DNA of 64,000 nucleotides, from positions 125,285 to 189,284 of the forward strand of contig CAWDSQ010000016.1 of assembly GCA_963804955.1 (NCBI GenBank). The letters are read 5' to 3'. Source of the stretch: an uncultured delta proteobacterium. Lineage in GTDB: Bacteria; Desulfobacterota; WTBG01; CAIYCZ01; CAIRTM01. The translations under genes and the position numbers were made by a program. Below the pieces are notes generated by a model. It ran no database searches and had not been told where the DNA came from. It saw nothing but the letters and a program-made list of their open reading frames with translations. Each line of letters begins with the position of its first letter. Position 1 is the stretch's first letter. Positions 727-58,141 of the stretch are shown in pieces.

Positions 727-760
727 AAAAGCAGGCGCCCCTTTCGGGGCGCCTGCTTTT
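727..760. terminator. Bidirectional intrinsic terminator after the Mo-hydroxylase operon
   Basis: AAAAGCAGGCGCCCC-TTTC-GGGGCGCCTGCTTTT perfect hairpin just past the stop at 772. Confidence 0.9.
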
Positions 761-771
761 GTACAGCACTT

Positions 772-3159: not shown

Positions 3160-3174
3160 GCTGTTCCTCCTTTC

Positions 3175-3726: not shown

Positions 3727-3769
3727 GATTAAATCTCCTTAAAGATAATGTTGTGAAATAGTCCTGTAA

Positions 3770-4640: not shown

Positions 4641-4821
4641 AAGTTAAACCTCCTTATTCAATTAGTTTAAACGTGTACGTGGGTTTCTACCAAATATAAA
4701 GGCTTTCTGTTCCAGCCACCTCCTTTCGAAACTGATTTGTATAAAATAAAAAGAACTGAATGATTCTTGCGTCGTGCTGCTATCGCTTCCGCAACAGCGG
4801 CATACTCAGACTGCTGCCAAT

Positions 4822-4852
4822 AAAAAACCGGTCCCGTGACGTCAAGGACCGG
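4822..4852 (-). terminator. Riboswitch expression-platform terminator upstream of the XDH operon
   Basis: Minus strand CCGGTCC-TTGACGTCACG-GGACCGG-TTTTTT. Confidence 0.75.
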
Positions 4853-4874
4853 CTCGCTTACAATCGCGAACCGT

Positions 4875-4972
4875 ATCTCCTTTCCGCCACGGGAGGCATG
4901 ACCTTTCGGGCCATGCCCTGTCGTCCGTCTGTTCACAAGCTTGGGCTTTTAGAATGCGGCCGGCTTGGAGAT
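4875..4972 (-). ncRNA. Moco/Tuco riboswitch aptamer (P3-less form)
   Basis: Minus strand CUCCAAG..P2..AGGG-CAUGGCC-CGAAA-GGUCAUG-CCUCCCGUGGCGGAAAGGAG, matching the Moco motif 3' core; lies upstream of a molybdoenzyme. Confidence 0.85.
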
Positions 4973-5080
4973 CCCTGCTGTTCCGAATCTCTGCCGCGTA
5001 TGCCTGCTCTGCCGCTACGAGACTTTACACTCTACCCTTACGCACCCGGGAGCGTCAACGCGTCGCCGGTAAAAAATGCG

Positions 5081-6412
5081 GCAACATAAAAATGTCACCC
5101 CAGCGGGCTCAGTCACACGCGCTGCCATGGGCCAGCACCGCATAGGCCCAGGTCGAATTTCCCGGCTCGCTGCGCGGTTTGGAGCTATTTGCCGGTCACC
5201 GGCTCGCGCACCGGCGTGGGACCATGGCCGGCAATAACAGTCATTGCCATAATAGACCCGCCACGAGCCGTCCAGAAGCTGCCGCACCTCGACCGGCGCT
5301 TTTGCATATGATATGCGCTTGCGGCCGGGCGGCACATCGATTCGGATATCCCCGAGCACGACCTTATTATCATGCTGCACGGTTGCGGGATAATAAAAGC
5401 TGCAGACCCGCTCAAGATCAACGCCTTCGGGCAGCTTCCGCCATGCAGGCTCGGGCTGTTCGGGCTCGCAGGCATGGCTGCGGTTGAATGCCGCTATAAG
5501 GCCATGATCAAGCAGCTTATTGGCCTTGTCAGTTCTGCTATATCTCTGCCTTCAAACTGGCCGGCAAGAAATGTTTCAAACAGAAGCCGTAATGCTCATG
5601 ATCCGGCGCTTGCTTTCAAGATAATGCGCGATGCCCAGCGCCTGCAGCGCCCGCTCGACCTGGCTCGGGTCCCGCTCGCCGCGCAGCTCCTCTTCAAGAG
5701 TCCAGGAGCGGTCGCTGCGGCGCACGGCGCTGCGGCTGTGCTGGCAGAATGCCGGTGGCACGCCGCAGGTGCGCACAACCTCACGCATCAGCCAGAGATA
5801 CGCCTCTGCTTGTTTGTGCCGGGAAAAAGCGCGCCGCAAGACAGCTCAGCGTGGCCGTGTCGACCGCTGCCATAAAGCAGCTTTCGTGCTCGCCAAACCA
5901 TTTTTTCGTAATGCCGCCCCACAGCACCATCATGCCTTCACTGGCATAGCAGGCTGACCGCGGGTCGCCGCTGCCTGTCCTTCCGGCCTGGTTCGCTTGA
6001 TGCCCTCGGCGCGCAGAATTCTTCGAATTGTTTCACGGCTGAGGCTGATGCCGTGCTCGGCCTGCAGCCGCAGCGTTAGCTGCGTATCATTTAGAGCCGC
6101 GTACCGCGTGCGGGCAAGATGCAGAATGCGCGTGCGCACATGATCACTTAAGGCCCTGTGCGAGCGCCTGCCGATATTGCCGTGCAGCACGCCGCGCGCG
6201 CCGTTGCGGACAAATGCCTGCTTGAGCCGTTTTGCCTGCCGGTAGCTGACGCCTATTTTACCTGCGCGCCTCTCGCAGCGTAATATAGCCGTCAAGCACC
6301 ATCTGCAGAAAATGGATGCGCTGGAGCTGACCGGGGCTGAACGCGAGCAACTGCGTTTGCAGGCCGGCGCATCGGCGGCTATCTTCTTGTTGAGCTGTTC
6401 TGCATGGCTCAA
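5081..6412 (-). mobile_element. ISNCY-family transposase derivative, frameshifted and lacking DDE residues
   Basis: LQRIHFLQMVLDGYITLREA..GVSYRQAKRLK..HGNIGR..ISLSRETIRRIL; AAVDTAT; YAKAPVEVRQLLDGSWRVYY; IS-end-like GGTGACATTTTTATGTTGC at 5081-5099. Confidence 0.75.
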
Positions 6413-6487
6413 AAAAACCCCTTCTGCATCATATAGGAAAAAAACAGCGGGGTTTCGCAGTCGGCCATGGTCTGCTCATTGAATATT

Positions 6488-7148
6488 TCACGCGGGGTGC
6501 CCATGTCCACGTTCTTTGCCGTCGGCATATACAATGACTCTATCTGCCAGGCAGTAGGCCTCGAAAATATCATGGGTCACCAAAACAACCGGTATGCGGT
6601 AAAGTTGTGCCTGATGTCGCGCAGAAAGTCGCGCATCTCCGTGCGCAGATGCTGAGTCGAGGGCTGAGAAGGGCTCGTCAAGCAGCAGCAGATCGGGCTG
6701 CCGGATAAGTGCCCGGGCAAATGCCACACGCTGTTTCTGCCCACCTGAAATTTCGCAGGGCAATTTATACTCAAGTCCTTCAAGGTGAAAAAGATCCATG
6801 ATGTCCCGCAGACGCCGGTTGCGATCCTGCGGGCTGATGCCTGCGGCGCCGTACAGAATATTTTTTTCAACGGTCATATGGGGGAACAGGGCAAGATCCT
6901 GAAACACATAGCCGATGCGGCGCTTCTGAGGGGGCAGACATATATTCGCTGACGGTATCAAGCAGCACGGTGTCACCAAGCGTTATGAAGCCCTTGTCGG
7001 GCTTCATGTGGCCCGCAATCAGCTGCAGGGTCAGTGACTTGCCTGCTCCGGATGGCCCGAAAATGACGGCGAGCTCATCCCCGACCTCCCAGGAAACAGC
7101 AAGATGAAATCCTTTTACTTTTTTATCGACCGTGACTTTAAAACCCAT
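6488..7148 (-). CDS. modC: Molybdate ABC transporter ATPase (frameshifted)
   Basis: GPSGAGKS Walker [35 protein letters not shown]. Confidence 0.9.
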
Positions 7149-7193
7149 ATCGATATCCTTGCATTCCGGGCTACATGCTCTGTTGCGTGTTTT

Positions 7194-7902
7194 TTAAAAC
7201 GGCGACAGGCCGTTTCTGCCGCATTTGCGAAACCGCGCGGTCAGGCTGTTTGCGATCAGGAGCAGCCCGCCGGATACGACTGTAAAAACCGCGACCATGA
7301 CATGCGCCCGCGGCCAGTCGCCGCTTGCAGCGCTTGTGTAAATGGCAAGGGGCATGGTGTCGGTTCGGCCGGGAATATTGCCGGCCATCATGAGGGTTGC
7401 CCCGAATTCGCCCATAGCACGGCAAAAGAGAGCAGAAGCGCGCCGGCAATGATTCCCGGTTTTGCCAGGGGCAGTATCACTTTGAAAAAAGTTTCAAGCT
7501 CGGAGCGGCCCAGGGAATATGATGCATTTACTAAATTGACATCGACCGACTTCAATGGCGGCCCGTGATGTCTTGACCATCAGCGGCAGAGACACGACAA
7601 ACGAGGCCAGCACAGCGGCATACCAGGTAAACATGATGCTCAGGCCCTGTACTCTCGTATATCCAGCTGCCCAGAAAGCCGTTTCTGCCAAAAAAGATAA
7701 TCAGGTAGTACCCTGTCACGCTCGGCGGCAGCACCAGCGGCAGGGTGCAGAGCATGTCAAGCAGCTGCCTGCCGCGAAAGTCACATCGCGCAAGAACATA
7801 GGCAGCTGCCATACCAATAACGATCACAAAGCAGGTTGCGGTCAGTGCGACCTGCAGCGACAATCGGAGTGAAAAAAGTGTTGTGCCGTCAAGACCGCTC
7901 AT
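7194..7902 (-). CDS. modB: Molybdate ABC transporter permease (frameshifted)
   Basis: LSLQVA, TLPLVLPPSVTGY, GEFGATLMMAGNIPGRTDTMPLAIY. Confidence 0.9.
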
Positions 7903-8676
7903 GGTTTTGCAAAACCGTATTTTTCAAGAATGCTGCGTGCTGCGGTGTCACCGGCAACAAACTCGCACAAACGTTCTTGCCGCTTGTGGGCTTTTCGTGT
8001 TTTTTATAACCGCTGCCGGATACAGCACCGGGCTGTGAGCTGCTTGCGGGACACGCAAAAAAAATGCTCGCCCCGGTCGGCTGCGTGAGCGCATCGGTTT
8101 TGTACACAATGCCCGCATCGACTTCTCCGCGAACCACATAATCGAGCACCTGTCGCACATTTTCACCCATAATGAGTTTTTCTTTGAGCACATCGCTCAA
8201 CTTGAAAAAAGCAAGCACTTCCCCTGCATACCGTCCGGCGGGAACGGTCTGCGGATTGCCGATACCGATTCTGCGAACTTCGGGTTTTTTTAAATCGTCC
8301 ATGCCTGCAAGCTTCAGGCTCGACTGGGAGGGTTTCACAAGGACGATACTGTTGCCGGCAAACACAGCCCGGGTTTCGGGGATCGAGTAGATGTTTGCTT
8401 TCTATGTCATTCATGTCTTTGGGCGATGCCGAGGCAAACACATCAACCGGCGCGCCCGCTTCGATCTGCCGGGCAAGGTCGCCGGAACCGCCGAAATTGA
8501 AAAGCACTTTAACCGTCGGGTTTATTGCTTCAAAGCTCTTGCCAATCTCTTAAAAAGCGTTTTTCAGGCTGATGGCGGCGGACACGGTTATCTCGGCCTG
8601 TCCGGAAGCATTGAAACGGGTAGACAGAGAAAAAGCAAAGGGCTGCGGCGGCAAACAGGAAACGTTGACGATTCAT
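7889..8676 (-). CDS. modA: Molybdate ABC transporter substrate-binding protein (frameshifted)
   Basis: FNFGGSGDLARQIEAGAPVDVFASA, GNPQTVPAGRYA, ENVRQVLDYVVRGEVDAGIVYKTDA; RBS AAGGAGG before ATG 8676. Confidence 0.9.
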
Positions 8677-8703
8677 GGTCCTCCTTCATGAAAAACGGGC
8701 AAT

Positions 8704-8738
8704 AAAAAAAGCCGCTCCCGTGGCGACACGAGACCGGC
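8704..8738 (-). terminator. Riboswitch expression-platform terminator upstream of modA
   Basis: Minus strand GCCGGTCTCGTG-TCGC-CACGGGAGCGGC-TTTTTTT. Confidence 0.75.
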
Positions 8739-8757
8739 TCATTGGAGCAATCGACCA

Positions 8758-8855
8758 ATCTCCTTTCCGCCACGGGAGGCATGACGTCTTTCGGCATAAG
8801 CCCTATCGGTCGAACATCCATTGTTTTTTTACGGTAGGACTTTCGACTCGGAGAT
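8758..8855 (-). ncRNA. Moco/Tuco riboswitch aptamer (P3-less form) upstream of modABC
   Basis: Minus strand CUCCGAG-UCGAA..UUCGA..AGGG..GAAA..CCUCCCGUGGCGGAAAGGAG; 3' core identical to the 4875-4972 copy. Confidence 0.88.
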
Positions 8856-8875
8856 ATAGTTTGTAATTATTAGTA

Positions 8876-8904
8876 ATAATAATGATTTTGTCTATGTGCG
8901 TCAA
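8876..8904 (-). promoter_or_regulatory. sigma70-type promoter for the riboswitch-modABC transcript
   Basis: TTGACG-17bp-TATTAT about 20 nt upstream of the aptamer. Confidence 0.6.
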
Positions 8905-9070
8905 GGGTTGAATAGAAAAAACTAATTGCAGAATTATTTTGTCCCCATGGCCGGATGACCTTGTAGCTTCCCTCATGCGCCCTGCCCCCGCTGGGTTGTG
9001 GCTTTGATGCTGCGCGTACTCTATTGTTCCCATATTTTGTCCCTAGCAAGCTCCCTGCTGCAAGGATTCT

Positions 9071-9087
9071 TTCAATAGTCGTGCCAA
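9071..9087 (-). promoter_or_regulatory. Putative sigma54 (-24/-12) promoter
   Basis: TTGGCAC-GACTA-TTGAA, divergent from a sigma54 activator gene; the -12 element is TTGA rather than TTGC. Confidence 0.55.
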
Positions 9088-9159
9088 GATAAACGGTGGG
9101 TAATTGCAATGAAAAAACGGCCCTTTTTACGGGAAAAACTTGACACGGGGTAGGAATTG

Positions 9160-9194
9160 TGTCCAAATATGGACAGCGTGACCATTTGTGGTCA
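9160..9194. promoter_or_regulatory. Tandem palindromic enhancer (UAS) candidates for the adjacent activator
   Basis: TGTCCA-AATA-TGGACA (9160-9175) and TGACCA-TTTG-TGGTCA (9179-9194). Confidence 0.6.
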
Positions 9195-9296
9195 GAAGAC
9201 GGGCACATCGCCGACAAAATGATGTGGCAGAAACAGGGGCAGACAAAAGACCTGCGGCTGCTGGCCGTACAGGCCTGTCCTATGAAAGAAACCCGC

Positions 9297-10799
9297 ATGG
9301 ATGAGCTGCAAAACTATCAGACTCTTCTGCAAATCACCAACGCCACCATCAATGAGCGCACGCGGGAGGGTCTATTCCGGGAGATTGCGACCGTGCTCAG
9401 CCCTGTCTTGCTTTGACCGCATCGAGCATTCTGATCAACAACCCCGGTAAATCCCACTGGGAATATTTCACACCCGCTCTGGGTGCTACCATCCCGGACT
9501 TAAAAATAACACCATACCCCCGGAGCGGGCGGCGGTGCCCGTGCGCGTCATGACGGAAAAACGAACCATCATCACTGATCTTGACCGGGACAGCGGCCTT
9601 CCGGAAGCCGCGCTTTTGCGGCGGGCCCGGATTCGCTCTTTTGTCTGCACGCCGCTGCTCATGCGCGACCAGGTGCTCGGATCGGTACAGTTTTTTACCG
9701 CGACGCCCGCCCCTATGCGCCGAGGAGATCGAGCTGTGCGAAAAAGCATGTCGGCAGATCGCCCTTGCCATCGACAATATGCTCGCCTACGAGTCCCTCG
9801 AACAGATGCGGGACCAGCTCTCTAGGAAACAGCCTTCCTCCGACGGGAAATGGCCAGCATCGACTGCGCCGAGATCGGTATGCAAGCCCTGCATGGAGCG
9901 TATCATCGAAATCATTAAGGCCGTTGCCGACGCCGACACGACCGTGCTCGTCACCGGCGAAACCGGCACAGGCAAAGACCTCGTCGCACGCAAGATCCAT
10001 GAATGGAGCTCCCGCCGGGCAATTCTTCATAAGGTCAATTGCGCCGCCCTGGTGCCCACGCTGATAGAAAGTGAACTGTTCGGCCATGAAAAAGGCGCCT
10101 TTACCGGCGCTGCGGCACGCAAAATTGGACGGTTTGAGCTTGCCCAGAACAGCACGCTGTTTCTTGATGAAATCGGCGAGCTGCCGCTGCAACGCAGGCA
10201 AAGCTGCTGCAGGTTCTGCAGGAGCACGAGTTCGAGCGCGTGGGCGGCACGGAAACCATTCGTACCGATGCTCGCATCATCGCGGCAACCAATCACAACC
10301 TCAGCGCGATGGTGGTGGAGGCAAGGTTTCGTGAGGACCTGTTCTACCGGCTCAATATCTTCCCCGTGCCGTGCCGCCCCTGCGGGAACGGCGCGAGGAT
10401 ATAGCAGTTCTGGGCAGGTACTTCGCGCCGCTGTAGCACAAAGCTTCGACGGCCGCAGCCCCGCTTCAACAAAAGCGCGTTGACGTGCTGTTGCGTTACG
10501 ACTGGCCCGGCAATGTGCGGGAGCTTCAGAACTTCATGGAAAGGGTGATCATACTGAAATCGAACCAAACCATGACCGGCGACGATATAGCACCATGCTC
10601 AACAGTTCAGCGACGCAGCGCGACGGCGCGTGACCCTTGAAGACGCCGAACGACGCCACATCGAAACATGCTCTGAAAAATGCAACGGTGTCATTGCAGG
10701 CCCGCGGGGCGCTGCCGAGCAGTTGAACATGAAACGAGCACGCTGCAGCACCGCATGAAAAAGCTGGGGGTTCAGGCAGACACGTACAGAAAGGCTTGA
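9297..10799 (+). CDS. sigma54-dependent transcriptional activator, GAF-AAA+-HTH (FhlA-like; frameshifted)
   Basis: [52 protein letters not shown]-terminal GAF-like region. Confidence 0.9.
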
Positions 10800-22073: not shown

Positions 22074-22559
22074 TTATTTGCCGACTGCCCAGCTGAAGGT
22101 TATGGAAAACTGGGCCGGAAGCAGGACATCGCCGTCGATGTTCTTGATGAAGGCGACCGCCAGCACCAGGCCGTACGCGGCGCTCATCTTCACGGTTTTG
22201 GTAAGCGTCAGCGGAGCTGCTGATTTCACATTAATAAATGCGGGCTTGCCGCCCAGCGGATAGGCCAGCCCAAGCAGGCTGTACTCGAGCACGGCGCCGA
22301 AATCCTTGGTGACCGTGGGCTTAAGCGTAATGGTCAGATCACCCAGTTTGGTTTCATTGTCGCCCGTGCCGATAAGCAGGTATGTTTCCATCGGGCCAAA
22401 CGTGCGGCTGTCGAACTCATCATACAAATAAAATTCCCGGATCGTGCTTTCGCCGGGGTCGAGGGTCAGCAGGCTGCCAGCCTGCACCTGCACAGCTGCC
22501 ATGCTCATCGCACAGACGAGAACGGCACTTGTAAAAAATTTTTTCCATCCCTTTTTCAT
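22074..22559 (-). CDS. Secreted hypothetical protein upstream of the porin
   Basis: Signal peptide ending VQA, beta-rich, RBS GGGAGG. Confidence 0.75.
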   Translation of the reverse strand: MKKGWKKFFTSAVLVCAMSMAAVQVQAGSLLTLDPGESTIREFYLYDEFDSRTFGPMETYLLIGTGDNETKLGDLTITLKPTVTKDFGAVLEYSLLGLAYPLGGKPAFINVKSAAPLTLTKTVKMSAAYGLVLAVAFIKNIDGDVLLPAQFSITFSWAVGK

Positions 22560-33283: not shown

Positions 33284-34708
33284 TTAGTACAGACGGGCTT
33301 CATCGGTATTGTCCCGCCAGCCGCCGCCCAGGGTCCTGCACAGGGCAAGGACCGAGTCAAGCTGGCCCTGGCGTGCAGCCGAAAGTACAAACTCGGCCTC
33401 AAGCGATCGGCGCTGGATATCAAGCACATCGATAATGCTGATATACCCGCGGGCATGCTGCTTCCGGGAAAGCTCGAAGCTCCGGCGCATGGCCCGTACT
33501 CGCTCAATGGATGCCGCAAGCACCTGCGAAGTTTTAGTTCCGGAAACAAGGGCGTCGCGGGTTTCCCTGAACGCGCTCTGCACCGTTTGCTCATAGTGCG
33601 CAAGCATCTGCTCCTGGCGGGCCCTGGCAGCCTTTTCCCGGGCAAACAATTTGCCGCCTTCAAAAATGGGCTGGGATAGCCCAGCCGCTATATGCCAGAC
33701 ATTGGCGCCGCCCGCGAACAGATCCTGCAGCTCGGAGCTTGCAAACCCGTACTGGCCGGTGAGCGTAATCGACGGAAAAAATGCCGCCCGCGCAGCGCCG
33801 ATGCGGGCATTGGCCGCTATCAGCATTTCTTCATCGCGGCGTATATCGGGTCTGCGGGCGAGAAGGTCGGAAGGTATGTTTTCAGGAATGAGCGGAAACG
33901 TATTCAGCTCTTCAAGCGTTTTACCCTCTTCGGTAAAGCCCTGCACGATTCCGCGCGGGCTGCGCCCGAGCAGCATGGCAAGCGCGGTTTCGGCCTTTGA
34001 CTGTTCATTTTCCCGCTGATACAGCAGGGCTTCGGTCGCAAGCCGGTCTGCTTCTATCCGGCGCAGGTCAAGCTCCTGCGTATAGCCCCAGCGGTACCGT
34101 TTGCGATAGATCTCGCAGGTTTTATCATAGGTGGCGAGCTGGTCCCGGGCTATGCGCGTCTGGGCCTGCAGCGTGCGCAGGCGGAAATACATGGCCGCCA
34201 CATCCGCCGTGAGAGACAGCTGCACCGCATCGCGGCCGGCCGCGGTCGCCAGCAGCTCTGCGCGCGCCGCTTCATCAAGGCGGCGATATTTGCCCCACAG
34301 GTCAAGTTCAAATGATGCAAAGCCGAGCGCGTCATAGGATTCATACATTCTGCTTTCACCCTGCGGCGTGCCGTCCTTTGTCGAGCGGCCCCGCGCAGCA
34401 TCGCCGCCAATCCCCGCAGCAGGAAGCCTGTCGGCAAAAGCAATGCGCGCAAGGGCGCGCGCTTCCTCGACCCGCGCCATGGCGATTTTCAGATCACGGT
34501 TACAGGCAAGCGCTTCAACCTCGATTCTGTCAAGCGTCGAGTCATTAAACAGCTTCCACCAGTTAATGGCGGTAAACGGAGCGCTCTGGGCTGTAGCATT
34601 ATCTGGTGCAGCGGGCAGCACAAGCTCTGGCCGGATATAATCAGGGCCCATGGCGCAGCCTGCAAGCAGTAGGGGAATCAGCAGATAAAAAAGCCTGTAG
34701 CGCGGCAT
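33284..34708 (-). CDS. RND efflux outer membrane lipoprotein (OprM/NodT-like)
   Basis: LAG-C lipobox, WWKLFND, SFELDLWG, PSDLLARRPDI, LGGGW. Confidence 0.93.
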   Translation of the reverse strand: MPRYRLFYLLIPLLLAGCAMGPDYIRPELVLPAAPDNATAQSAPFTAINWWKLFNDSTLDRIEVEALACNRDLKIAMARVEEARALARIAFADRLPAAGIGGDAARGRSTKDGTPQGESRMYESYDALGFASFELDLWGKYRRLDEAARAELLATAAGRDAVQLSLTADVAAMYFRLRTLQAQTRIARDQLATYDKTCEIYRKRYRWGYTQELDLRRIEADRLATEALLYQRENEQSKAETALAMLLGRSPRGIVQGFTEEGKTLEELNTFPLIPENIPSDLLARRPDIRRDEEMLIAANARIGAARAAFFPSITLTGQYGFASSELQDLFAGGANVWHIAAGLSQPIFEGGKLFAREKAARARQEQMLAHYEQTVQSAFRETRDALVSGTKTSQVLAASIERVRAMRRSFELSRKQHARGYISIIDVLDIQRRSLEAEFVLSAARQGQLDSVLALCRTLGGGWRDNTDEARLY

Positions 34709-34709
34709 A

Positions 34710-37700
34710 TCAGCCTCTCTCTTTCCGGTTGAGCGCGGATTGTGCAGCAGTGCGCAGAAAAGCGGCAATCTTAAGTGAGCCGAGTTTTTCAGTGAAGCGC
34801 ATAATGCCCACAAAAAACAGTGGCACGAAATAGGTCGCGATAAAGGTCGAGGCGAGCATGCCGCCCACAACGCCCGTGCCGATGGAGTGGCGGCTGGCTG
34901 ACCCTGCGCCCGAGCTCAGGGCAAGGGGCAGGCACCCCAGCACGAATGCCATGGAGGTCATCACAATGGGCCTGAAGCGCTGGCGCGCCGCTTCAATGGC
35001 GGCCTCGGCAAGAGGCATGCCGGCCTCATGCTTATGCAGTGCGAATTCAACAATCAGAATGGCGTTTTTCGCCGACAGGCCTATGAGCGTCACCAGTGCT
35101 ATCTGGAAGTACACATCATTCGGGAGTCCCCGCAGCCAGACAAGGGCAATGGCGCCGAACATGGCAAACGGCACGCTCACCAGCACGACCAGCGGCAGGC
35201 TCCACCGTTCATACTGCGCTGCAAGAATGAGAAACACCACGATGAGCCCCATGATGAAGGCAAGCAGGGAGGCGCCGCCGGCGAGCTTTTCCTGATAGGA
35301 GCTGCCGGTCCAGGCAAGAGTATAGCTCTCCGGAAAACTTTGAAGACCGAGCTCCTCAAGGGCCTGCAGGGCCTGGCCAGAGCTGTAGCCGGGCGCAGGC
35401 GCGCCGACGATTTTTCCAGCCGGGAACACATTGAAGCGTTCCACGATATCGGGCCCGACTATGGGGTCGAGCCGCACCAGCGACGACAGGGGGATCATTT
35501 GCCCCGATGATGACCGCACGAACACCTCGCGCAGATTTTCCGGCAGGCTCCGAAACGGCGCCGCCGCCTGCATCATGACCTTGAACGTGCGGCCCGCTTT
35601 ATTGAAATCGTTGATATAGAAGGCGCCGAAGGTCGACTGCATGGTGGTGAAGAGCATGTCTTTTGTAACGCCAAGAGCATAGGCTTTTTCAAGGTCCGCC
35701 TCCGCCATGTACTGCGGGGTTGCGGCCCGGAAGGTGGTGGCGATGCGTCCGATCTCTGGCCGCGCCATGGCGGCTTTTATAAAACGCTGTATCTCCGCGG
35801 CAAGCTGGCTGCTGTCGCCGTCGCCGCGATTTTGTATATAGCCTTCAAATCCGCCAGTTAAGCTCATGCCGAGTATCGGCGGCGGGCTGAAAACAATAAA
35901 CCGGGCGCCGGGTATGGTCTCTTCGGCCTGCCGCATGAGATCAGCGGCGATATTCTCCGGCGTCTGGGCTGCCGAGCGCTCGCCCCAGGGCAGGGTATTC
36001 ATGAAGCAGGAGCCCGCATTGTTTTTCATGGCCCCCGACAGCATGTCAAAGCCTGCAAAAGTCTGAATGCTTGTCCATCAGGGGATGGGACAGCACAATT
36101 TTCTCGAAGGCGTCCATTGCCCGCTCTGCCCGCTTGAGCGATGCTCCCTCATCAAGGGCCGCAAAGGCAAACAGCTTTGCCTGATCTTCATTGGGCACGA
36201 GGCTCCCCGGCACCCGTAAAAACAAAAACAGCGTGAGGCCCGCCATCAAAAAAAAGACGATGAGCGCAGCCGGCGCATGATGGATAACGGCCGTGACCGC
36301 CCGGGCATAGCGGCCCGTGCTCCGGCCGAACCAGGCATCGAAGCGCTCAAGCAGGTTTTTGCTGGTGCCGTGGCCGGGCTTTAAAAGAAGCGCGGAGAGC
36401 GCCGGGGTGAGCGTCAGGGCGACAATGCCCGAGATGATCACCGAGATGCTGATCGTGATGGCAAACTGCCGGTACATGGTGCCGGCAAGGCCCTGCATGA
36501 AGGCAACCGGTACAAACACGGCGCACAGCACCAGCACGATGGCGATGATGGGGCCCGTGACCTGCTCCATGGCCTTGATGGTGGCCTCGCGCGGGGGGAG
36601 CCCTTCCGAGCGCATGATGCGCTCGACGTTTTCAATCACCACGATTGCATCATCTACCACGATACCGATCGCCAGTACCAGGCCGAACAGCGTCAGGGTG
36701 TTTATTGAAAACCCGAAGGCATACATGCCGGCAAAAGCCCCTATTATGGATACCGGCACGGCAAGGCAGGGAATGAGGGTCGCGCGCAGGCTCTTTAAAA
36801 ATATAAAAACGATGAGAAAGACCAGCAGCCACTGCCTCAAAGAGGGTTATGACCACCTCTTTGATGGAGATGCGCACGAAGGTCGTGGTGTCATGGGGTA
36901 TGGTATAGACAACGCCGGGCGGAAAGCGCCGAGCGAGCTCTTCCATGCGCGCCATGATAGCGTCGGCGGTTGCAATGGCATTGGCGCCTGACTGGAGATT
37001 GACCACGATCGGCACAGACAGCATGCCGTTTTTCTTGCCGGTAAATTCATAGGTCAGGGCACCCAGCTCGACCTTTGCCACATCCTTCAGCCGCAGGCTG
37101 CTGCCGTCGGGATTTGCGCGCAGAATGATATTTCCGAACTGCTCGGGGCTGTCGAGCCGCCCCTTCACGATGAGCGAGTACACGCGGCCCATGTCTTCGC
37201 CCACGGGGGGCTGGCCGAGCTTGCCCGCAGCATATTGCATGTTTTGCGCCCGCACTGCCGCGGCAACATCTGAGGCCGAAAGCCCGAGCTGCGCCATTTT
37301 ATCGGGCTTGAGCCAGATGCGGATGGAATAGTCCCGGGCGCCGAACAGCCAGACGCCCCCTACGCCGGGAATGCGCTTGAGATCATCCATGACGTTTATG
37401 AGGGCGTAATTGGAGAGATAGGTGGTGTCGTAGACGCCGCCCGGCGACATGAGGGTCACGGCCATGAGCACGGTCGGGGATTTTTCTTCCACGATGATGC
37501 CGAACCGGCGCACATCCTCGGGCAAGGTGGACAGCACGGTCTGCACGCGGTTATTGACATCAATGGTCGCCTGATTGGGGTCGGTCCCGACGGCGAAGGT
37601 CACGTTAAGCTCAAGCTTGCCGTCGCTTGACGCCAGAGAGCTCATGTAGATCATATCGTCAACGCCGTTTATGGCCTGCTCAAGCGGTGCTGCAACGGTT

Positions 37701-50183: not shown

Positions 50184-50657
50184 TTAAGATTCACTGAATT
50201 CGGAACCGTTTCCGCCGGGAAGCGTGTTTTGCTTCCAGATAAATATGCTGATATTATCAGAATCAAACCTTACTTCGGCTGAAATGCGATCTGGTGATAC
50301 CTGCGGGACAAAACTGTTGTCTGCTGCAAGCGAATGGTCTTCATGATCATGCTCAGAAACAATGTTCCTGGTTTCTTTGTCGCCATGGGGGGGAAAACCC
50401 AAAAACACGCCTGGAATGTTTCGGCTTTTTTTTGTCTCTGCATCGCTTATAATCTTATAATATGAAATGTGCGCTTCTGTGTGCTCCAGCTTGTCCTTTT
50501 TGAGTGAAACAAAACTTTTCATATTCATGCTGTGGTTCATCAACGTATCGTTTTCCCGTGAAACCTTCTGAAAGAAAACCGCACCTATTCTTTCCCGGCA
50601 ACAGACAACCAGAAAAAACAGCATGAGTATCATGATTACCTTCGGGGCTAAGCGCAT
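50184..50657 (-). CDS. Hypothetical exported or membrane-anchored protein
   Basis: Hydrophobic N-terminus ending VVCC, His-rich EHDHEDH; first gene after riboswitch copy 2. Confidence 0.55.
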   Translation of the reverse strand: MRLAPKVIMILMLFFLVVCCRERIGAVFFQKVSRENDTLMNHSMNMKSFVSLKKDKLEHTEAHISYYKIISDAETKKSRNIPGVFLGFPPHGDKETRNIVSEHDHEDHSLAADNSFVPQVSPDRISAEVRFDSDNISIFIWKQNTLPGGNGSEFSES

Positions 50658-50810
50658 ATAATGCTCCCTCATATAGCCGGTTGAGTGGCGGTGCCGCCTT
50701 GCTGCCCAGGCTTTACCCTGTTGCCGGCTCACGGAAGTATTGCTCTCTTACAAAAGCTGTGTTCTTTTCGGCAGGATCCGGCATGAAAAATTCCCTGCTC
50801 TGATAAGCGC

Positions 50811-51095: not shown

Positions 51096-53087
51096 CTAGA
51101 GCGCCTTCACCTCTATCGTGCCTTTACATTCACCAAGGGTCACCTCAACATCGCCCGGCTCCAGGGCAAGGGGTTTTACAAAAACAATGGCGATGACAAC
51201 TTTTTTGCCGACTTTCAGCTTAAAAAGATGTTTGATGGCTTCGCTGTCCCAAACGGGCTTATCTGCTCTGACAAACTCCGTATCATCCTCGCCGATCAGA
51301 ACAAACCCCTTAATCGGCTCAAGCAGGCTCAGCAGTTTATGCAGCTTTTTCGGGATCACCTTCAGCGTGCAGGTTTCATTATCAGTGCCGTTATCAGCAG
51401 GAGTTACCTGGTTGCGCGGATTACCGGTTGTATTGTCGATAGTGTAGAGCTCTTTGCCGGCAGCCCCGTTATATTCGCATACCATAACCCTATAAATGGT
51501 TTCCGGCGTCAGGCCCGTCACCGTCGCACCGGTGCCTGTGCCGCTGTAGATGCTGTACCACCCGGTTGAGCCGATCTGGGAGCCTGCGCCGAACGCTGCG
51601 TCTGCTGCGTAGGTGGCATTGTCAGCGGGGCTGGCTGTGCCATTGTCGGCTTGCTTCATGAACACCGCGCACCGTTCTCCGTTGCCCCGGGTCCAGGAAA
51701 TATCCATCTGCTCCTGCTGCACATTTGAAAACACGATATCGCTCGCCTGCGTTGCCGGCGGCAGGAGTAGTTTGGCCAAAAAAACATCGTCGGTGCCGCT
51801 GTAGGCCCGAACGGGATCACCCCAGGCTGCATCGCTTTGGCCGGCAGCAAACACGTTGCCATTGTTGTGCAAGGCGATGCCGTATGGGTAGTCCGTGCCG
51901 CTGCCGCCGAAAAAGGTGTTCCAGGAAAGAGCACCGTTAGGGGCAAGCCTTGCAATAAAAGCGTCCTGCCCTGCTATATGCGGCCATGCGGGTGTTCCCC
52001 AGGTGGCCCCGCTGCTTCCCGCAACAAAAACATTGCCGGAAGGGTCAACGGCTATGGCATCACCTTCATCATACTCGCTGGTGCCAACAAAGGTATGCCA
52101 GGCAAGAGCGCCGCCTGCGTCAACCTTTGCCACGAAGGCATCATCGCCTCCGGCATAGGGCAGCACCGGCGTTTCGCTCCAGGGGCCGCCCGAGTAGCCG
52201 GTCACATACGAATTGCCGCCGCTGTCTGCGGCTATGCCGTAGCCCTCTTCATAGCTTGTGCCGCCCAAAAACGTGTTCCAGATAAAAGTGCCGTTATCGG
52301 CAATTTTTACCACGAACGTGTCTTCATCGCCCGCATACGCCCGCACCGGGCTGCCCCATGTGCCGGTACTGAATCCCGACACATGCAGCCTGCCACTGCC
52401 GTCGCGGGCCAGATCATAGCCCCAGTCAGTCCCGCTGCCGCCCAGAAACGTGTGCCAGAGGCGGTTGCCGCTGCTGTCAAGCTTAGCCACGAAACCATCA
52501 CTGCCGCCGGTGTATGCACGAAGGGGCGTTCCCCAGGTGCCCTTGCTGGTCCCTGCAACATAGACATTGCCGCTGCCGTCCACCGCGATGCCGTAGCCGT
52601 AATCATCCTCTGTTCCGCCCATAAACGTATTCCAGAGAAGGTTACCGCTGCCGTCAAGCTTGGCCACAAAAGCGTCGAGCGCGCCAGCCCAGGGTTGCAC
52701 CGGCCCGGCCCACGTTGTCGAGCTGTTTCCCACGACGTAGACATTGCCGCTGCCGTCCACGGTAATCTTGCGGGATTCATCGCCGAAAAAATCGCCAAGG
52801 AAGGTGTTCCAGACCAGCGTGCCATTGTCGGCAATTTTAGCCACAAAAGCATCGCTTGCCCCGTTATATATCCGCACAGGGCTACCCCAGGTGGCGTTGC
52901 TGATACCTGCTACATGCGCATAGCCGCTGTCGTCTACGGCCACCCCGTAGCTCCGGTCGCCGCTGCTTTGGCCGAGGAATGTATTCCAGGCAAGTGCTGC
53001 CGCGCCTGCGCTGCAATGGGTGCTGAAAAGGAAGAGCAAGGTAAAAAAAACAGCGCTGGTACCCGCACAATATCGTTTGCTGTTCAT
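51096..53087 (-). CDS. Secreted SBBP beta-propeller repeat protein with an FN3-like module and a basic C-terminal domain
   Basis: Signal peptide; seven WNTF.GG...D.GY.IAVD.SGNVYV.G repeats. Confidence 0.85.
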   Translation of the reverse strand: MNSKRYCAGTSAVFFTLLFLFSTHCSAGAAALAWNTFLGQSSGDRSYGVAVDDSGYAHVAGISNATWGSPVRIYNGASDAFVAKIADNGTLVWNTFLGDFFGDESRKITVDGSGNVYVVGNSSTTWAGPVQPWAGALDAFVAKLDGSGNLLWNTFMGGTEDDYGYGIAVDGSGNVYVAGTSKGTWGTPLRAYTGGSDGFVAKLDSSGNRLWHTFLGGSGTDWGYDLARDGSGRLHVSGFSTGTWGSPVRAYAGDEDTFVVKIADNGTFIWNTFLGGTSYEEGYGIAADSGGNSYVTGYSGGPWSETPVLPYAGGDDAFVAKVDAGGALAWHTFVGTSEYDEGDAIAVDPSGNVFVAGSSGATWGTPAWPHIAGQDAFIARLAPNGALSWNTFFGGSGTDYPYGIALHNNGNVFAAGQSDAAWGDPVRAYSGTDDVFLAKLLLPPATQASDIVFSNVQQEQMDISWTRGNGERCAVFMKQADNGTASPADNATYAADAAFGAGSQIGSTGWYSIYSGTGTGATVTGLTPETIYRVMVCEYNGAAGKELYTIDNTTGNPRNQVTPADNGTDNETCTLKVIPKKLHKLLSLLEPIKGFVLIGEDDTEFVRADKPVWDSEAIKHLFKLKVGKKVVIAIVFVKPLALEPGDVEVTLGECKGTIEVKAL

Positions 53088-53382
53088 GGCTGTTCCCCTT
53101 TCTTAGAATCTATTTCACAAAAAGTTGAGCGGCACGAGGCATGCTTTTTCCCCTGCGTACCGGTGTTTACTTGCCTCCCACCATCGGAGCAATTGTGTTA
53201 AGCACCCTGCGCGCAACTGCCCGAAGTGACGGGCTGCTCTCAAGGGCGGCATTGCTGCTGTCGGCATTCCTGTAATAAATTTGAACCGCCAAGCGGCCAA
53301 CCGCGCGCCGAGCCGCGGGTTCTGCGAAAAAATTTAAAAACCATTTCGACTCCCTCGTCGGGCCAGACAATTAAAGAAGGTT

Positions 53383-53435
53383 CCGGGGGTCAAATCGTTA
53401 TAGTGACAATGCACAAATAACGATTTGACCCCCGG
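53383..53435. repeat. 19-bp perfect inverted repeat (REP or terminator) after the FG-GAP gene
   Basis: CCGGGGGTCAAATCGTTAT..ATAACGATTTGACCCCCGG. Confidence 0.7.
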
Positions 53436-53443
53436 TTTTTAAC

Positions 53444-56252
53444 TTATCTCGTTTCAATCATGGGCAGCAAAAGGTCAACAAGTGCTTTTGCTTTCCGCTG
53501 CAGACCACCATTGTCTTCCAACAAGCCGTCAAATACAGGAGCAAGGGTATAATAGAGCCGTATCATAAGCCTGCCCGGCGCCGTTTTAGCCAGGACCTCG
53601 TCGCGATAGCGGTAGAACTGCTCGATCTCTGCGGACTCCTCACCATACATTTTCGCAAGGGGGCATTTTTTTCCTACCAGTATTGTCACCTTGGCAGGCG
53701 CGCTCACGCTGACGCCATCGCTTGCCGTATAGGTGAAGCTATCGTTTCCCATGAAGCCTTTTTCCGGCGTATAGGCAAACGACCCGTCAGCCTGCAGCGT
53801 CAGCTCACCATGCGCGGGCTGGGTTACAATTGCTGCCGTGAGATTCTCGCTGTCTGCGGCGGTGTCATTGTCAAGAACGCCGGGCGCGGCAATGGTAAGC
53901 GTTTTGTTTTTTCGTATTGCATAGGCGTCTGCCAGGGCAAGGGGCGCCGTGTTTGTAATTTGGCTGCCCGTAGCCGGGTTTGCAGTCAGGTAATTCGGAG
54001 CCTCTGACTGCGAACTCTTGAAAGCATAGACCGTTACATGGTAGGTGGCGCCGGGCGTAAGACCGGTAACGGTAACCGAACCGCCGCTGCCGCTGTAGGC
54101 AGACAAAAGTATCCGTGCCGAGCTCAGAGCCCGACCCGAATGAGGGATTTGCCGCATAGGATGTGCCGTCAACAGGTTCGGCAGAAACCGCACTGCCTTC
54201 CCGTATCAGCACGAGGCTGCCAGCGCCGCTGGCCGGTGTCCAGCCCACGGTCATGGCGAGCGGATGAAACACCGGTAAAGGTTACTTCGCTTGCCTGCTG
54301 TGCCGGCTCATCTGCCACTACTCTGAAAATATAGGCTGAGCCCTGGTCTGCTTGTGCGGAAATATCTGCTTTATAAGCCCCCACAACCACCGTATCGGCG
54401 CTCACGGCAACGGCTTTTCCGAAATAATCCTCGAACTCTCCGTCTGCAGCAGAAAGCTTTGCGGTCTGAGAAGGGTTGCCCGACCAGCCCGCAGCAGGCT
54501 TCCGAAACACATAGGCCGCGCCCCTCGCTTGGCCGCTGATGGCAGCATAATGGGCTCCGACCACCACGGCATCGCCATTCACTGCAACGCTTGAGCCGAG
54601 CCTGTCGTTTGCCGCGCCATCCGAAGCGATAAGTTTTGCATTCTCTGTCGCATGGTCCCAGCCGGTCGAAGGCCGTACAAAAACATAGGCTGAGCCCTGT
54701 TTAGCTTTTGCTCCTATCATGGCCTGGTCTGCCCCGACAACAACGATATCACCTTCCACGGCAACGGAAACGCCGAAATAATCATTTGCCGCACGATCAG
54801 ATGAGGACAGTTGTTTGCCGGTTGCAGCGTACCAGCCATCAAGGGGCTTTTCAAATACATAGGCAAGCCCGGATGCTGTAATCGTCGGAATCGTATCGCG
54901 TGAAGCACCTGCCACAATTGTATCGCCGCTTATGGCTACGGCTGTACCGAAACGATCCCCCGCGTCGCCGTAGGGAGATAAAAGCCGTTCGCCAACGACA
55001 GTGCCGGCCCAACCGCCGGAGGGCTTTTCAAACACATAAATTGCGCCCTCTGAACTTTGATACCCGTAGGCCCCGACAACAATAGTATCGCCGCTCACGG
55101 CAACGCTATAGCCAAAACAATCATCCGCTGCGCCGGTTGCTGCAATGAGCTTTACAGTATATGACGATGTCGTAGCCCAGCCGCTCTCAGGTTTTGTAAA
55201 CACATAGGCTGAGCCCTGATTCGTTTTCGCGCCAATGTCATCGTAGGGTGCTCCCACCACCACCGTATCGCCGCTCACGGCAACGGATATGCCGAAACCA
55301 TCATTTGCCGATCCCTCAGAGGTCGTAAGTCTGGCAACATATGACGCTGTCGTAGCCCACCCACTCCGCGGGTTTTGTAAACACATAGGCTGCGCCCAGA
55401 TCTGCATTTGCAGAATACGCGCCCAACCACCACCGTATCGCCGCTCATCGCAACGGAATAGCCGAAACAATCGAATGCCGCGCCATCGGAGGCCGTGAGT
55501 TTGGCCTGCTGTATGACCGGGTCGATATACACAGGATAGCTCAGTCCTGTGTCATCAGCACAGATATGCAGCATACCGCCCTGCGCCTCAAGCCATGCCG
55601 GTGCCTCGCGGCCATTGGCATCCCGCACCACCAAACCGCTGTAGCGATACAAAGCAGAACCATCGACTCTCGTAAGCATTGCCCCGAGACCATCGGCATC
55701 AACACTGCCGCGTATGCGCCATCAATGAACAGACAACCCTCAACGCGCCGTTGCCAGCCTTCGCGGAGGCTTCTGCAATCGTAAAGCCCTGCTGCAGGCC
55801 CAGCGGACCATTTATATACCATTCGCTGACAGAACCGCGAGTGCTGACAACTATATTCCCATAAGACTGCGGCACAGCTGCCGGCAGCAGGCGCAAGCTC
55901 CTCACCATGGCCCCAGGCCACCGGCTGCAGCAAAATGTGCTGCCCGCCCGAGCCTATTTCAACGCCGCCGGAACCGAAACGGGCCGTGAGGCCGTGGCCG
56001 GTATTATCTGCCTGCACAACATCACCATACGGACGCGCATGATAGCCAGACTGGTCATGGCCGATGGCTGCCGATACGGCATACCGGGCCTCCATTGAAA
56101 GGCTTTCCAAACCCTGCTTTACCGCAGCCGTCGACGGGACCGGCCAGACAAGCAAGGCCAAAAAAAGAAGTGCGCTTCGGAGTAAAAAACGGGTACGCAG
56201 CCATGGTGCGTTCTGGCCTGGAAAATAATTCGCTACGGTCTTGTGTTTTCAT
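53444..56252 (-). CDS. Secreted FG-GAP repeat protein with FN3-like, Ig-like and CFI-box-CTERM-like domains (frameshifted)
   Basis: KL.ASDG...D.FG.SVAVSGDTVVVGA..GSAYVF repeats; APGVLDND..PAHG.L....DGSF.YTP..GF.G.DSFTY; C-terminal CP..KMYG..S.E....YRDEVL..T..G...I.LYY. Confidence 0.85.
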
Positions 56253-56293
56253 TCTGTGCTCTCCCTATCCAAAAACCACACATTTCCTACAGT

Positions 56294-58141
56294 TTAAAAA
56301 CCTCTGATACTCATGCTGCCCGTGCAGCCGCCCACGCTCACCTCATAGGTGTCGGTCACCTGCAGCAGCGATGCCTTAATGCGGACAAGGGCCAGCATAA
56401 AGCGCTTCTTTTTCCCCAGCGGAAACTGAAACAGCGCTTCGGCGGCTTCGTCAGGGAATACTATGGGGGTGTCTTTGGCGAACTGCATGCCGTCGGGCGC
56501 GCGAAACAGAAACAGCCGGACCGGCCGTATGATGCTGAACAGCTTGCTCAGCCGCCGGGGCAACAGTTTTACGGCGCAGGTTGAGCAGTTGTCCCACGCC
56601 AGCGGATCGTCATCGTCGCAGTCGGGCCCCAGGCAGTCAAGCCCGAGGCCGTAGCCGTCGCCGTCCTCATCGACGCAGCCCGGAGGAATCGTGGTCGTGG
56701 TTGTCGTTGAAACAGCGGGCGCCGGGAACTTCCACAGACCGTAGCCTTCCGTGCCGCTTGCATAGAAATAAATACTGTCGCCGATGCGCGCAAAAGAGGC
56801 CGGGGAACTGGAGCTGGAGCCGCTTGCAAGGTCGGCTACACGCACGGTGCCCGCCTCGGTGCCGTCGCTCTTCCACAGCTCTTCGCCGCTGGTGCCATCA
56901 TCGGCTCTGAAATAGAGCATGTCATTGACCACGATGCTGCCCTCATGGCCCCAATAGCTATCACCATCTCCGGGGTTGATATCTTTCACCATCTGGGTGC
57001 CGGCTTCCGTACCGTCGCTTATCCACAGCTCGCTGCCATGCACACCGTCGTAAACCCCGAACAGCAACTTGCTTGCCCACTGCTCTCATGCCATAGGGGC
57101 TGGCATTGGAGGCATCAGGAACAATATCCTTCACCAGATGCGTGCCGCCCTCTGTTCCGTCGGTCACCCACAGCTCCTTGCCATGAATTCCATCATCTGC
57201 CACAAAAAAAAGCTTTTCGTCATTAACATTGGTAAATTCCGGCGTAAGGGTCCAGTCGTTCAGGCCGGGCTCGTCCGTAGCGGGGTTTATTTCCTTCACC
57301 ATATACGTGCCAGCCGCCGTTCCGTCACTGCGCCACAGCTCCCGGTTATTGTTGGACATGTCGCTCGGGTCCGAGCTGTTGTCTGCGGCAAAATAGAGTA
57401 TGCCGCCCATCTCCGTAAGATAGGTCGGGCCATAGTCTGCCGAAGACCCCGGCTGTATGTCTTTAACAATGACGGTGTTTTCCGGGGTGCCGTCTGTCTT
57501 CCATAGTTCGGCGCCGCTCGTGCCGTCATTGGCGACAAAAAACAGCACTCCGTTAACGAGGGTGAACTGGTCGGGGTCTGAGGCGCTGCTGCCGGGGCGG
57601 ATATTTTTAAAAAGCGTTGTGCCGCCCGGCGTGCCGTCTGTCCGCCACAGCTCATAGCCCGTGGTGCCGTTGTCGCCGGCCGTATAAACATAGCCGTTAT
57701 AGGCCAGAATTTTCCCCCAGTTGGAAGGCACGCCGCTGCCGGTACCCGATCTGATGTTCTTGTATCAGCCCGGTGCCCGCTTCCGTGCCGTCGCTCTGTC
57801 CAGAGCTCGGAGCCGTAGGTACCGTTGTCGGCCACGAAAATAAGCTCAGACCCCAGGGGGCAGAGTCCAAGATTGTTGTAATACTTGATCGCGCTCCCGG
57901 TAGCTCCTGCCGTAAGATCCCGGACCATGTTCGTGCCGTCTGGAGTGCCGTCGCTTGTCCAAATTTCCCGGCCGGCACCGCCACCCGTTCCTACAAAAAA
58001 CGCCCTACCGCTCACGTCAAGTGGCGTGCTTTGTATGGTAATGCTTCCTTTTACCAGTTCCGGTGTTTGCGCCTGAGCGCCTGCGGTGAACGCGAGTAGC
58101 AACAGACAAAGCGAAATTCCTGCCTTAAGAATGTTTTTCAT
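56294..58141 (-). CDS. Secreted ELWxxDGT repeat protein with Thr linker, DxDGDG/DCDD motif and basic C-terminal domain (frameshifted)
   Basis: Repeated ELW.[ST]DGT..GT..VKDI; TTTTTT; DEDGDGYG..GPDCDDDD. Confidence 0.88.

Follow-up and report, generated by a model that had tools for sequence, protein, structure and literature searches.

A D-N-x-S/T motif enriched in exported proteins of an uncultured deltaproteobacterium: a probable new sequon variant with Asp at -1

A stretch of 64,000 nucleotides from an uncultured delta proteobacterium (assembly GCA_963804955.1, contig CAWDSQ010000016.1, positions 125,285 to 189,284), referred to as a whole as the window, was analyzed for the motif Asp-Asn-x-Ser/Thr (DNxS/T), an N-x-S/T sequon with Asp at -1, in its predicted exported proteins. 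To our knowledge, bacterial N-glycosylation has been described in detail only for Campylobacter-type systems, which use an acidic residue at -2, and for a few relaxed Desulfovibrio enzymes. Three neighboring genes encode an SBBP beta-propeller protein, an FG-GAP protein and an ELWxxDGT-repeat protein, with the following features (aa, amino acids; ORF, open reading frame).

51096..53087, minus strand: SBBP beta-propeller protein, exported, 663 aa (Pfam SBBP 114 bits, cut-off 20.5; heuristic signal peptide of ~29 aa)
52818..52829, minus strand: DNGT site 1, residue 87, at an SBBP repeat hairpin (KIADNGTLVW)
52287..52298, minus strand: DNGT site 2, residue 264, at the equivalent hairpin position of another SBBP repeat
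51612..51647, minus strand: DNGT (residue 481) and DNAT (residue 489), 8 residues apart, in the SBBP middle domain (QADNGTASPADNATY)
51372..51437, minus strand: DNTT (551), DNGT (565) and DNET (569), in the SBBP linker directly before the C-terminal domain
51099..51390, minus strand: C-terminal domain of the SBBP protein, ~95 aa, boundaries approximate (phmmer over genome ORFs)
53444..56161, minus strand: FG-GAP gene, exported, in at least 4 frames, with six FG-GAP_2 repeats (272.8 bits, cut-off 23), a Big_9/cadherin-like domain (Big_9 74.7 bits) and a CFI-box-like C-terminus
53861..53872, minus strand: DNDT of the FG-GAP gene
56294..58141, minus strand: ELWxxDGT-repeat gene, exported, in at least 3 frames, signal peptide at 58141 (TIGR04534 243 and 142 bits, cut-off 65)
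57818..57829, 57663..57674, 57372..57383 and 56582..56593, minus strand: DNGT, DNGT, DNSS and DNCS of the ELWxxDGT gene
~56297..56590, minus strand: C-terminal domain in the ELWxxDGT protein

The SBBP protein, which consists of a signal peptide, a fibronectin-like middle part and a ~95-aa C-terminal domain, carries seven Asp-Asn (DN) dipeptides, and all seven are DNxT (four DNGT and one each of DNAT, DNTT and DNET). Asp precedes 7 of its 9 N-x-S/T sequons. When the mature protein was shuffled 20,000 times, DNxS/T appeared 0.32 times on average and at most 4 times, and the binomial probability of 7/7 DNxT at a background rate of 0.116 is 2.8e-7. The ELWxxDGT gene, read across three frames, has four DN, all of them sequons (two DNGT, DNSS and DNCS). 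These counts are identical to those made by an earlier sequence-only reading of the window. The single cases it had listed were all located as well, namely the DNDT of the FG-GAP gene and one site in each of three further minus-strand genes.

50184..50732, minus strand: small predicted exported protein, no Pfam family; DNIS at 50247-50258, the other DN (AADNSF) not a sequon
33284..34870, minus strand: OEP/TolC-like outer-membrane efflux lipoprotein (Pfam OEP 155.7 bits); DNAT at 34592-34603, the second DN not a sequon
22074..22559, minus strand: predicted exported protein, 161 aa; DNET at 22350-22361

Over the whole window, 10/13 DN in predicted exported ORFs are sequons, compared with 2/16 in ORFs with neither a signal peptide nor a membrane segment. 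Both of the latter cases fall in downstream pieces of two frameshifted exported genes, FG-GAP and ELWxxDGT.

The count was extended to the window's own genome (G000), in which genes were called with our own codon-usage ORF caller (4395 ORFs, 77% of the genome) and signal peptides with our own von Heijne-style and lipobox heuristic. In the 560 predicted exported ORFs, 274 of 674 DN (40.7%) are DNxS/T, compared with 630 sequons among 5423 other Asn (11.6%; odds ratio 5.2, p 1.4e-69), an approximately five-fold enrichment of Asp. Within-protein shuffles that keep composition yielded 55.1 +/- 7.7 expected sites against the 274 observed (z 28). At least one site is present in 146/560 exported ORFs, with a maximum of 8 per ORF. 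The signal is weak in the other classes, with 195/1087 DN in ORFs lacking a signal peptide or membrane segment, 79/413 in membrane ORFs and 28/148 in ambiguous ORFs, and a first pass with a stricter lipoprotein rule gave 215/556 DN in 449 exported ORFs.

Asp is the sole residue enriched at -1 in exported ORFs. ENxS/T (38 observed, 38.2 expected) and the reversed motif [ST]xND (57 observed, 53.8 expected) are flat, and sequons without Asp at -1, which make up 70% of those in exported ORFs, show a slight depletion and no enrichment (630 observed, 726 +/- 21 expected). The enrichment is not an effect of paralogy: it persists with one representative per paralogue cluster (134/369 DN, odds ratio 4.4), in singletons alone (92/231) and after removal of the family sharing the C-terminal domain (237/624), and unique 14-mer contexts comprise 264 DNxS/T and 339 other DN. 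Raw counts of the DNA pattern GAYAAYNNNACN, tried in five genomes, gave no separation (G000 635 vs 430 for the control pattern; G007 831 vs 778) and were set aside.

The residues around the sites were analyzed in 351 DN-x-S/T sites pooled from exported ORFs of G000 and the relatives G003, G005 and G007. Thr outnumbers Ser at +2 by 268 to 83 (3.2-fold), and Pro is rare at +1 (5/351, background 7.2%) and at +3 (2/351, background 4.1%); position +1 favors Gly and Ala, and position -2 favors Ser, Pro, Gly and Thr. Avoidance of Pro at +1, preference for Thr over Ser, disfavored Pro at +3 and restriction to exported proteins are the features of an STT3-type sequon. Acidic residues showed no enrichment at -2 of the sequons, and Asp there is depleted (3.7% vs 7.6%, odds ratio 0.47). 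The site pattern is thus that of an oligosaccharyltransferase sequon with Asp added at -1 and without the acidic -2 residue of Campylobacter type. The carriers belong to unrelated families, including OEP, PPIase, Beta_propel, BNR/sortilin-like, LysM, SdrD_B-like and CarboxypepD_reg, and many have no Pfam family (Pfam scan of 30 of the 92 exported ORFs sampled from G005 and G007, comprising each of the 22 that carry a site and 8 of the 70 that carry none).

Relatives were processed with the identical pipeline on sampled parts of their genomes, and enrichment was measured in seven genomes including G000. The presence of STT3, the catalytic oligosaccharyltransferase family, was taken from a family profile search, which returned no strong match in G018 and G029. 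Sites are given as DNxS/T over all DN, with the ratio of observed to expected for exported ORFs.

G003, same genus, STT3 yes, 337 kb: exported 26/52, ratio 5.2; cytoplasmic 28/92
G005, genus g2, STT3 yes, 400 kb: exported 16/51, ratio 3.3; cytoplasmic 15/111
G007, genus g4, STT3 yes, 347 kb: exported 37/75, ratio 4.9; cytoplasmic 10/96
G016, genus g7, STT3 yes, 769 kb: exported 11/70, ratio 1.4; cytoplasmic 25/224
G018, sister family, STT3 no, 395 kb: exported 4/31, ratio 1.1; cytoplasmic 6/97
G029, same class, STT3 no, 400 kb: exported 7/37, ratio 1.3; cytoplasmic 12/107

The signal recurs in three relatives (G003, G005 and G007) belonging to three genera, and is absent from G018 and G029, the two sampled relatives without an STT3 match. 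Cytoplasmic ORFs are flat where assemblies look intact, with a ratio of ~1.0 in G005 and G007. The weak excess in the "cytoplasmic" class of G000 and G003 is consistent with the broken genes of these two genomes, in which the downstream pieces carry no signal peptide.

Database homologues of two carrier families show the same contrast. Among 119 SBBP homologues, the six full-length proteins at 51-72% identity have 24/34 DN in DNxS/T, compared with 20/162 (12.3%) in the remaining 113, where Asp occupies -1 in only 2.7% of sequons; at the repeat hairpin the family consensus reads KLDSSG where the window protein reads KIADNGT. For Beta_propel, the 119 homologues have 33/304 DN (10.9%) in the motif, and the copies in G007, G005 and G000 have 4/9, 4/4 and 6/8. 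The motif is therefore not a property of the SBBP or Beta_propel folds as such. Three Beta_propel homologues from public metagenomes, outside the set of near-orthologues (P0132, P0133 and P0140; 920 aa), contain DNxS/T at 3/6, 4/6 and 3/7 DN, and judging by these the rule may occur in other lineages too. In orthologue pairs of at least 35% identity and 70% coverage, a residue other than Asn stands opposite the exported G000 sites in 7/8 cases for G016 and 5/8 for G018. SBBP orthologues were found in only 3/21 genomes of the order, too few for mapping the trait. Taken together, the results show a large, real and sequon-like enrichment, with specificity for Asp at -1 and for exported proteins and a restriction to certain lineages.

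No oligosaccharyltransferase (OST) gene lies in the window, as had been noted, and the window's contig has no STT3 match. A match above the Pfam cut-off is present on another G000 contig (58.8 bits for the G000 fragment), directly downstream of a glycosyltransferase gene of the GT2 family.

G000:C20 ~133240-135750, outside the window: GT2-OST two-gene module

A homologue of the ~750-aa enzyme, with an open frame of ~624-764 aa, is present in 16/16 relatives of the family searched, whereas in the sister family 0/4 genomes searched had STT3 above the cut-off. The G007 copy scores 79.4 bits against Pfam STT3 (PF02516, cut-off 24.5) and 42.9 against STT3-PglB_core (PF21436, cut-off 23), and the G016 copy 63.8 and 40.4 bits. 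Relatives of the enzyme were also found at 80 loci in public metagenome-assembled genomes (MAGs) labeled Thermodesulfobacteriota, Deltaproteobacteria, Desulfobulbia, Desulfatitalea and others; pooled exported ORFs flanking these loci have 4/20 DN as sequons, a sample too small to weigh.

The enzyme matches structures of Campylobacter lari PglB at E 9e-19 (phmmer), with the alignment to PglB ending at residue 523. A crude hydropathy scan of the 745-aa enzyme indicates ~9 to 11 membrane segments within residues 54-441 and none after. In the alignment, D56, D154/D156 and E319 of C. lari PglB have their counterparts in TTFDAW, GRFDTDC and TISEQ, and the Asp of loop EL1, the DxD of EL2 and the TIxE of EL5 are conserved throughout the aligned family set of 8 full-length or fragmented sequences and 4 partial ones. 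In 10 relatives the WWDYG motif, which binds the Ser/Thr at +2, has the form WWDHG; G000 and G003 have WWDNG. In place of the DGGK motif the enzyme has N-D-G-S-I-H, keeping the Asp and the first Gly, with Gly-Lys replaced by Ser-Ile. Tyr or Phe stands at the position equivalent to R331, the Arg that recognizes Asp at -2 in C. lari; genus g7 has Ser or Thr there. Scores against the Campylobacter PglB equivalog NF050801 are 103.6 and 106.3 bits, far under its cut-off of 1300.

The GT2 gene lies directly upstream of the OST gene in 7/7 family genomes checked, and the order mnmE-GT2-OST is found in G007, a public MAG and G016. Its product scores 105.8 bits against Pfam Glycos_transf_2. The best NCBIfam match is AglJ, followed by PpgS, ArnC and dolichyl-phosphate (Dol-P) hexose transferases, all under their cut-offs; because the AglJ score of 135 bits is below the cut-off of 325, no specific sugar can be assigned. 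Hydrophobic segments at residues 207-239 and 252-270 of 285 indicate two to three C-terminal membrane segments, and these predicted helices resemble those of polyprenyl-phosphate sugar synthases. No pgl cluster surrounds the enzyme, and this polyprenyl-phosphate-type GT2 is the only neighbor of such a kind. A GtrA-type flippase was considered and rejected, being present in 4/21 genomes and not tracking the trait.

In G000 the frame switches of the enzyme gene, placed by hand from the alignment near L001 positions 361, 438, 870, 975 and 1503, coincide with 1-base indels seen in comparison with short-read contigs that three studies had obtained from related strains. All sequence runs matching the OST gene were such contigs of related strains, 88-99% alike, and they carry no information on expression or habitat. 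BamA of G000 is likewise broken, with an open frame of 388 aa compared with 904-966 aa in 17 of 19 other genomes. Because they match short-read indels and because the essential BamA is also broken, the frameshifts in the OST gene and in the window's ELWxxDGT and FG-GAP genes are read as assembly indel errors. The OST, GT2, BamA, ELWxxDGT and FG-GAP genes of G000 are all split between frames, and stretches rich in 1-base indel errors appear to occur genome-wide, among them window positions 53444-58141, G000:C20:133240-135750 and G000:C7:550111-550716. G003 has stops inside genes and probably many frameshifts.

Within genus g7, the GT2 is an intact 286 aa in G010 and G015 and frameshifted in G016; since other members of the genus have the intact gene, the frameshift is unsupported as the cause of the missing enrichment in G016. 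Three positions near the peptide-binding region distinguish the g7 enzymes from the other family enzymes: SEQ-F replaces SEQ-S/T/A, Ser/Thr replaces Tyr/Phe at the R331 equivalent, and GEL replaces GER past the DGGK region. These three sites are candidate specificity determinants, confounded by phylogeny and with enrichment measured in one g7 genome. The g7 OSTs, comprising L035 (G016:C10:135061-138161) and the partial OSTs of G010 and G015 (L232, L234), also lack the N-[VI]-T after DTDC that is present in 9/10 other aligned sequences (G014 reads N-V-V). Exported ORFs of G016 show a weak ENxS/T excess (14 vs 7.4 expected, z 2.5).

Several further observations concern the carriers. The ~95-aa C-terminal domain of the SBBP and ELWxxDGT proteins is matched by 23 G000 ORFs, these two included, at E < 1e-3 (phmmer against all G000 ORFs), and has no Pfam match at E <= 1. 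It lies at the extreme C-terminus of at least 23 ORFs (for example C21:20487-21230, C31:11581-13980 and C5:164746-165357), and follows the pattern C-x-[LV]-x-[VI]-x-P-[KR]...W[GDE][TS]xAI...V-G-x-C-x-G-x-[IL]-x-[VI]-[KR]. A linker containing DNxT/S or poly-Thr usually comes before it. In its exported carriers 37/50 DN are sequons. The domain may have a role in sorting or anchoring and may be new. The end of the FG-GAP protein (53444-54193, minus strand) has a CFI-box-CTERM-like segment after the Big_9/cadherin-like domain, scoring 35.6 bits in NCBIfam, under the cut-off of 40. An excess of DNxC in G000 (59 cases) was only apparent, 55 of the 59 coming from one giant exported repeat protein on contig C7, whose ORF runs past the contig start and contains a CDGIDNNCNGAVDEGY unit, repeated ~55 times with little variation, that is similar to a MopE-type metal-binding motif found by Pfam in a G005 protein. 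Positions 1-10000 of the window have many short overlapping ORFs and few long ones, and are probably a frameshift-hit region.

Compared with known systems, the enzyme is like Campylobacter jejuni and C. lari PglB in being a single-subunit STT3 with the EL1 Asp, DxD, TIxE and WWD motifs, in its predicted action in the periplasm on many exported proteins, and in having an upstream acidic residue in the signal. It differs in that the acidic residue is at -1 instead of -2 and is Asp only, that R331 is replaced by Tyr/Phe, and that a pgl cluster is lacking. Bacteroidetes have a general O-glycosylation motif, D-[ST]-[AILVMT], in which Asp also directly precedes the modified residue of exported proteins; there the linkage is O-linked, the enzyme family is another and the phylum is another.

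Campylobacter PglB requires Asp or Glu at -2, and the Desulfovibrio PglBs are relaxed (PMC4894442, PMC12229607). Those of D. gigas, D. alaskensis, D. vulgaris and D. marinus resemble the present enzyme in being deltaproteobacterial, single-subunit and independent of an acidic -2. They differ in that library screens found their -1 position relaxed, with Thr slightly preferred by DmPglB and no Asp rule given, where the genomes here suggest specificity for Asp at -1. An internal RDNAT of a test protein was a substrate for three Desulfovibrio PglBs and FSNYS was not, and RQNAT was not glycosylated by DdPglB and DgPglB, for which the authors invoke context; the native D. gigas site is TANGT (PMC4894442). 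The RDNAT result offers, by analogy, a precedent for an Asp-preceded site. Euryarchaeal AglB pathways share a neighboring GT2 that scores best with AglJ and has C-terminal membrane segments, and the DGSI seen here corresponds to the DGGK-type region of PglB and the euryarchaeal enzymes (motif names DGGK, TIxE and MI/DK from PMC8342417); unlike them, the host is bacterial and the AglJ score is far under the cut-off. With the eukaryotic oligosaccharyltransferase the pattern shares N-x-S/T, no Pro at +1, disfavored Pro at +3 and a preference for Thr. In the human glycoproteome, however, Asp at -1 is under-represented and reported to lower efficiency, the opposite of G000 (bioRxiv 10.64898/2026.09.03.749169). 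Full-text searches of published articles found no report of a D-N-x-S/T rule.

The sequence-only reading had proposed selection for a distinct Asp(-1) sequon, and the analysis supports it. That reading had named three outcomes that would speak against the proposal: a lack of proteome-wide enrichment, a lack of an OST gene, and an equal DNxS/T frequency in homologous repeats elsewhere. All three were examined and none was found; the proteome-wide comparison of -1 residues, the PglB/STT3 homologue in G000 and its family, and the distant SBBP homologues without motif excess came out in its favor.

DNxS/T is probably a new sequon variant. The explanation that we favor, with moderate confidence, is a general N-glycosylation system whose PglB-like enzyme favors or requires Asp at -1. 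In this proposal, D-N-x-S/T, with x not Pro and Thr preferred, would be the acceptor signal of this bacterium and of several genera in its family, a family related to uncultured Thermodesulfobacteriota. The AglJ/ArnC/GtrB-like GT2 would load a sugar onto polyprenyl phosphate, and the single-subunit STT3/PglB-type enzyme would then, in the periplasm, attach the glycan to Asn residues within exposed loops and linkers of exported proteins. Lacking the Arg for Asp at -2, the enzyme would favor or require Asp at -1 instead, and selection would therefore have added ~220 extra DNxS/T sites, spread over no less than a quarter of the predicted exported proteins, with the window's SBBP, ELWxxDGT and FG-GAP surface proteins among the targets. 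A sharper version, which we put forward only tentatively, is a minimal archaeal-style two-gene module with a transferase that requires Asp at -1 and modifies 200 to 300 sites in at least a quarter of the exported proteome, genus g7 having lost or changed the rule.

Several points weigh against this explanation. The link between enzyme and trait is weak, with enrichment in 4/5 genomes with the enzyme and 0/2 without among only seven genomes, and is confounded by phylogeny; G016 carries the orthologous GT2-OST module in the same synteny, and yet the 11 sites among its 70 exported DN compare with 7.6 expected. In orthologue pairs that pass the identity and coverage limits given above, exported G000 sites are kept in G003 at 21/36, no better than other Asn (200/349) or DN outside sequons (16/27), so that within the genus site density rather than position seems to be conserved. 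In BamA orthologues from 20 genomes, with 1 to 5 DN per protein, only 4/42 DN are sequons. Screens with XXNXT libraries revealed no preference of DgPglB and DmPglB for Asp at -1 (PMC4894442, PMC12229607). The enzyme gene of G000 is split into at least 4 frames by ~five 1-base indels, and it is possible that it is a real pseudogene. All genome-wide counts come from gene calls and signal peptides made with crude heuristics of our own, which are not validated predictors. Glycosylation of the Asn, the role of the enzyme, its reading of the -1 Asp and the nature of the donor are what we infer from these patterns.

That DNxS/T is a real recognition signal with another reader, be it another glycosyltransferase, modification or binding system present in g1, g2 and g4 and missing in g7, is unlikely. 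The unenriched G016 with its orthologous module fits such a reader, as does an enzyme association drawn from few, related genomes. Exclusion of Pro at +1 and +3 with preference for Thr is nevertheless STT3-type grammar, the enzyme retains the WWD motif, which binds the hydroxyl residue at +2, and the three g7 differences near the peptide-binding loops could account for the exception in another way. A different candidate enzyme was not found, and GtrA does not track the trait.

It is distinctly unlikely that a relaxed enzyme accepts any N-x-S/T and that Asp at -1 was selected secondarily, for occupancy, loop conformation or charge near the glycan. The Desulfovibrio PglBs, relaxed at both -2 and -1 (PMC4894442, PMC12229607), would agree with it, as would the 70% of exported sequons that lack Asp. 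Use of any sequon would, however, raise non-Asp sequons as well, and these are slightly depleted; Glu at -1 is also unenriched.

A structural turn motif of beta-rich secreted proteins, such as an Asx turn or beta-hairpin cap, with no modification at all, has little probability. Two SBBP sites do lie in repeat hairpins, and the residues favored at +1 (Gly, Ala) and -2 (Ser, Pro, Gly, Thr) would suit a turn. Equivalent folds elsewhere, however, have the motif at only 12.3% and 10.9% of DN, the exported ORFs of G018, G029 and G016 show no enrichment, the sites occur in unrelated folds and linkers, and the reversed motif and ENxS/T are flat. An artefact of gene calls, the signal-peptide heuristic or assembly errors is hardly credible: the predictors are home-made and frameshifts are many in G000 and probably G003, but with identical processing three other genomes reach ratios of just 1.1 to 1.4 and the cytoplasmic ORFs of G005 and G007 come out at ~1.0, the shuffles preserve each protein's composition, and database proteins from other pipelines show the same contrast.

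Comparison of exported with cytoplasmic proteins makes acceptor rules readable from genomes alone. If the favored explanation, an N-glycosylation system reading Asp at -1, is true, DNxS/T would be a third acceptor rule for bacterial N-glycosylation and could serve as a short glycoengineering tag orthogonal to PglB and the eukaryotic enzymes. The clades with and without the rule would form a natural enzyme pair for mapping how -1 is read, and the g7 substitutions in loop EL5 and beside the DGGK region would point to the residues that read it. A large share of the surface and periplasmic proteome would then be glycosylated in an uncultured family related to sulfate reducers.

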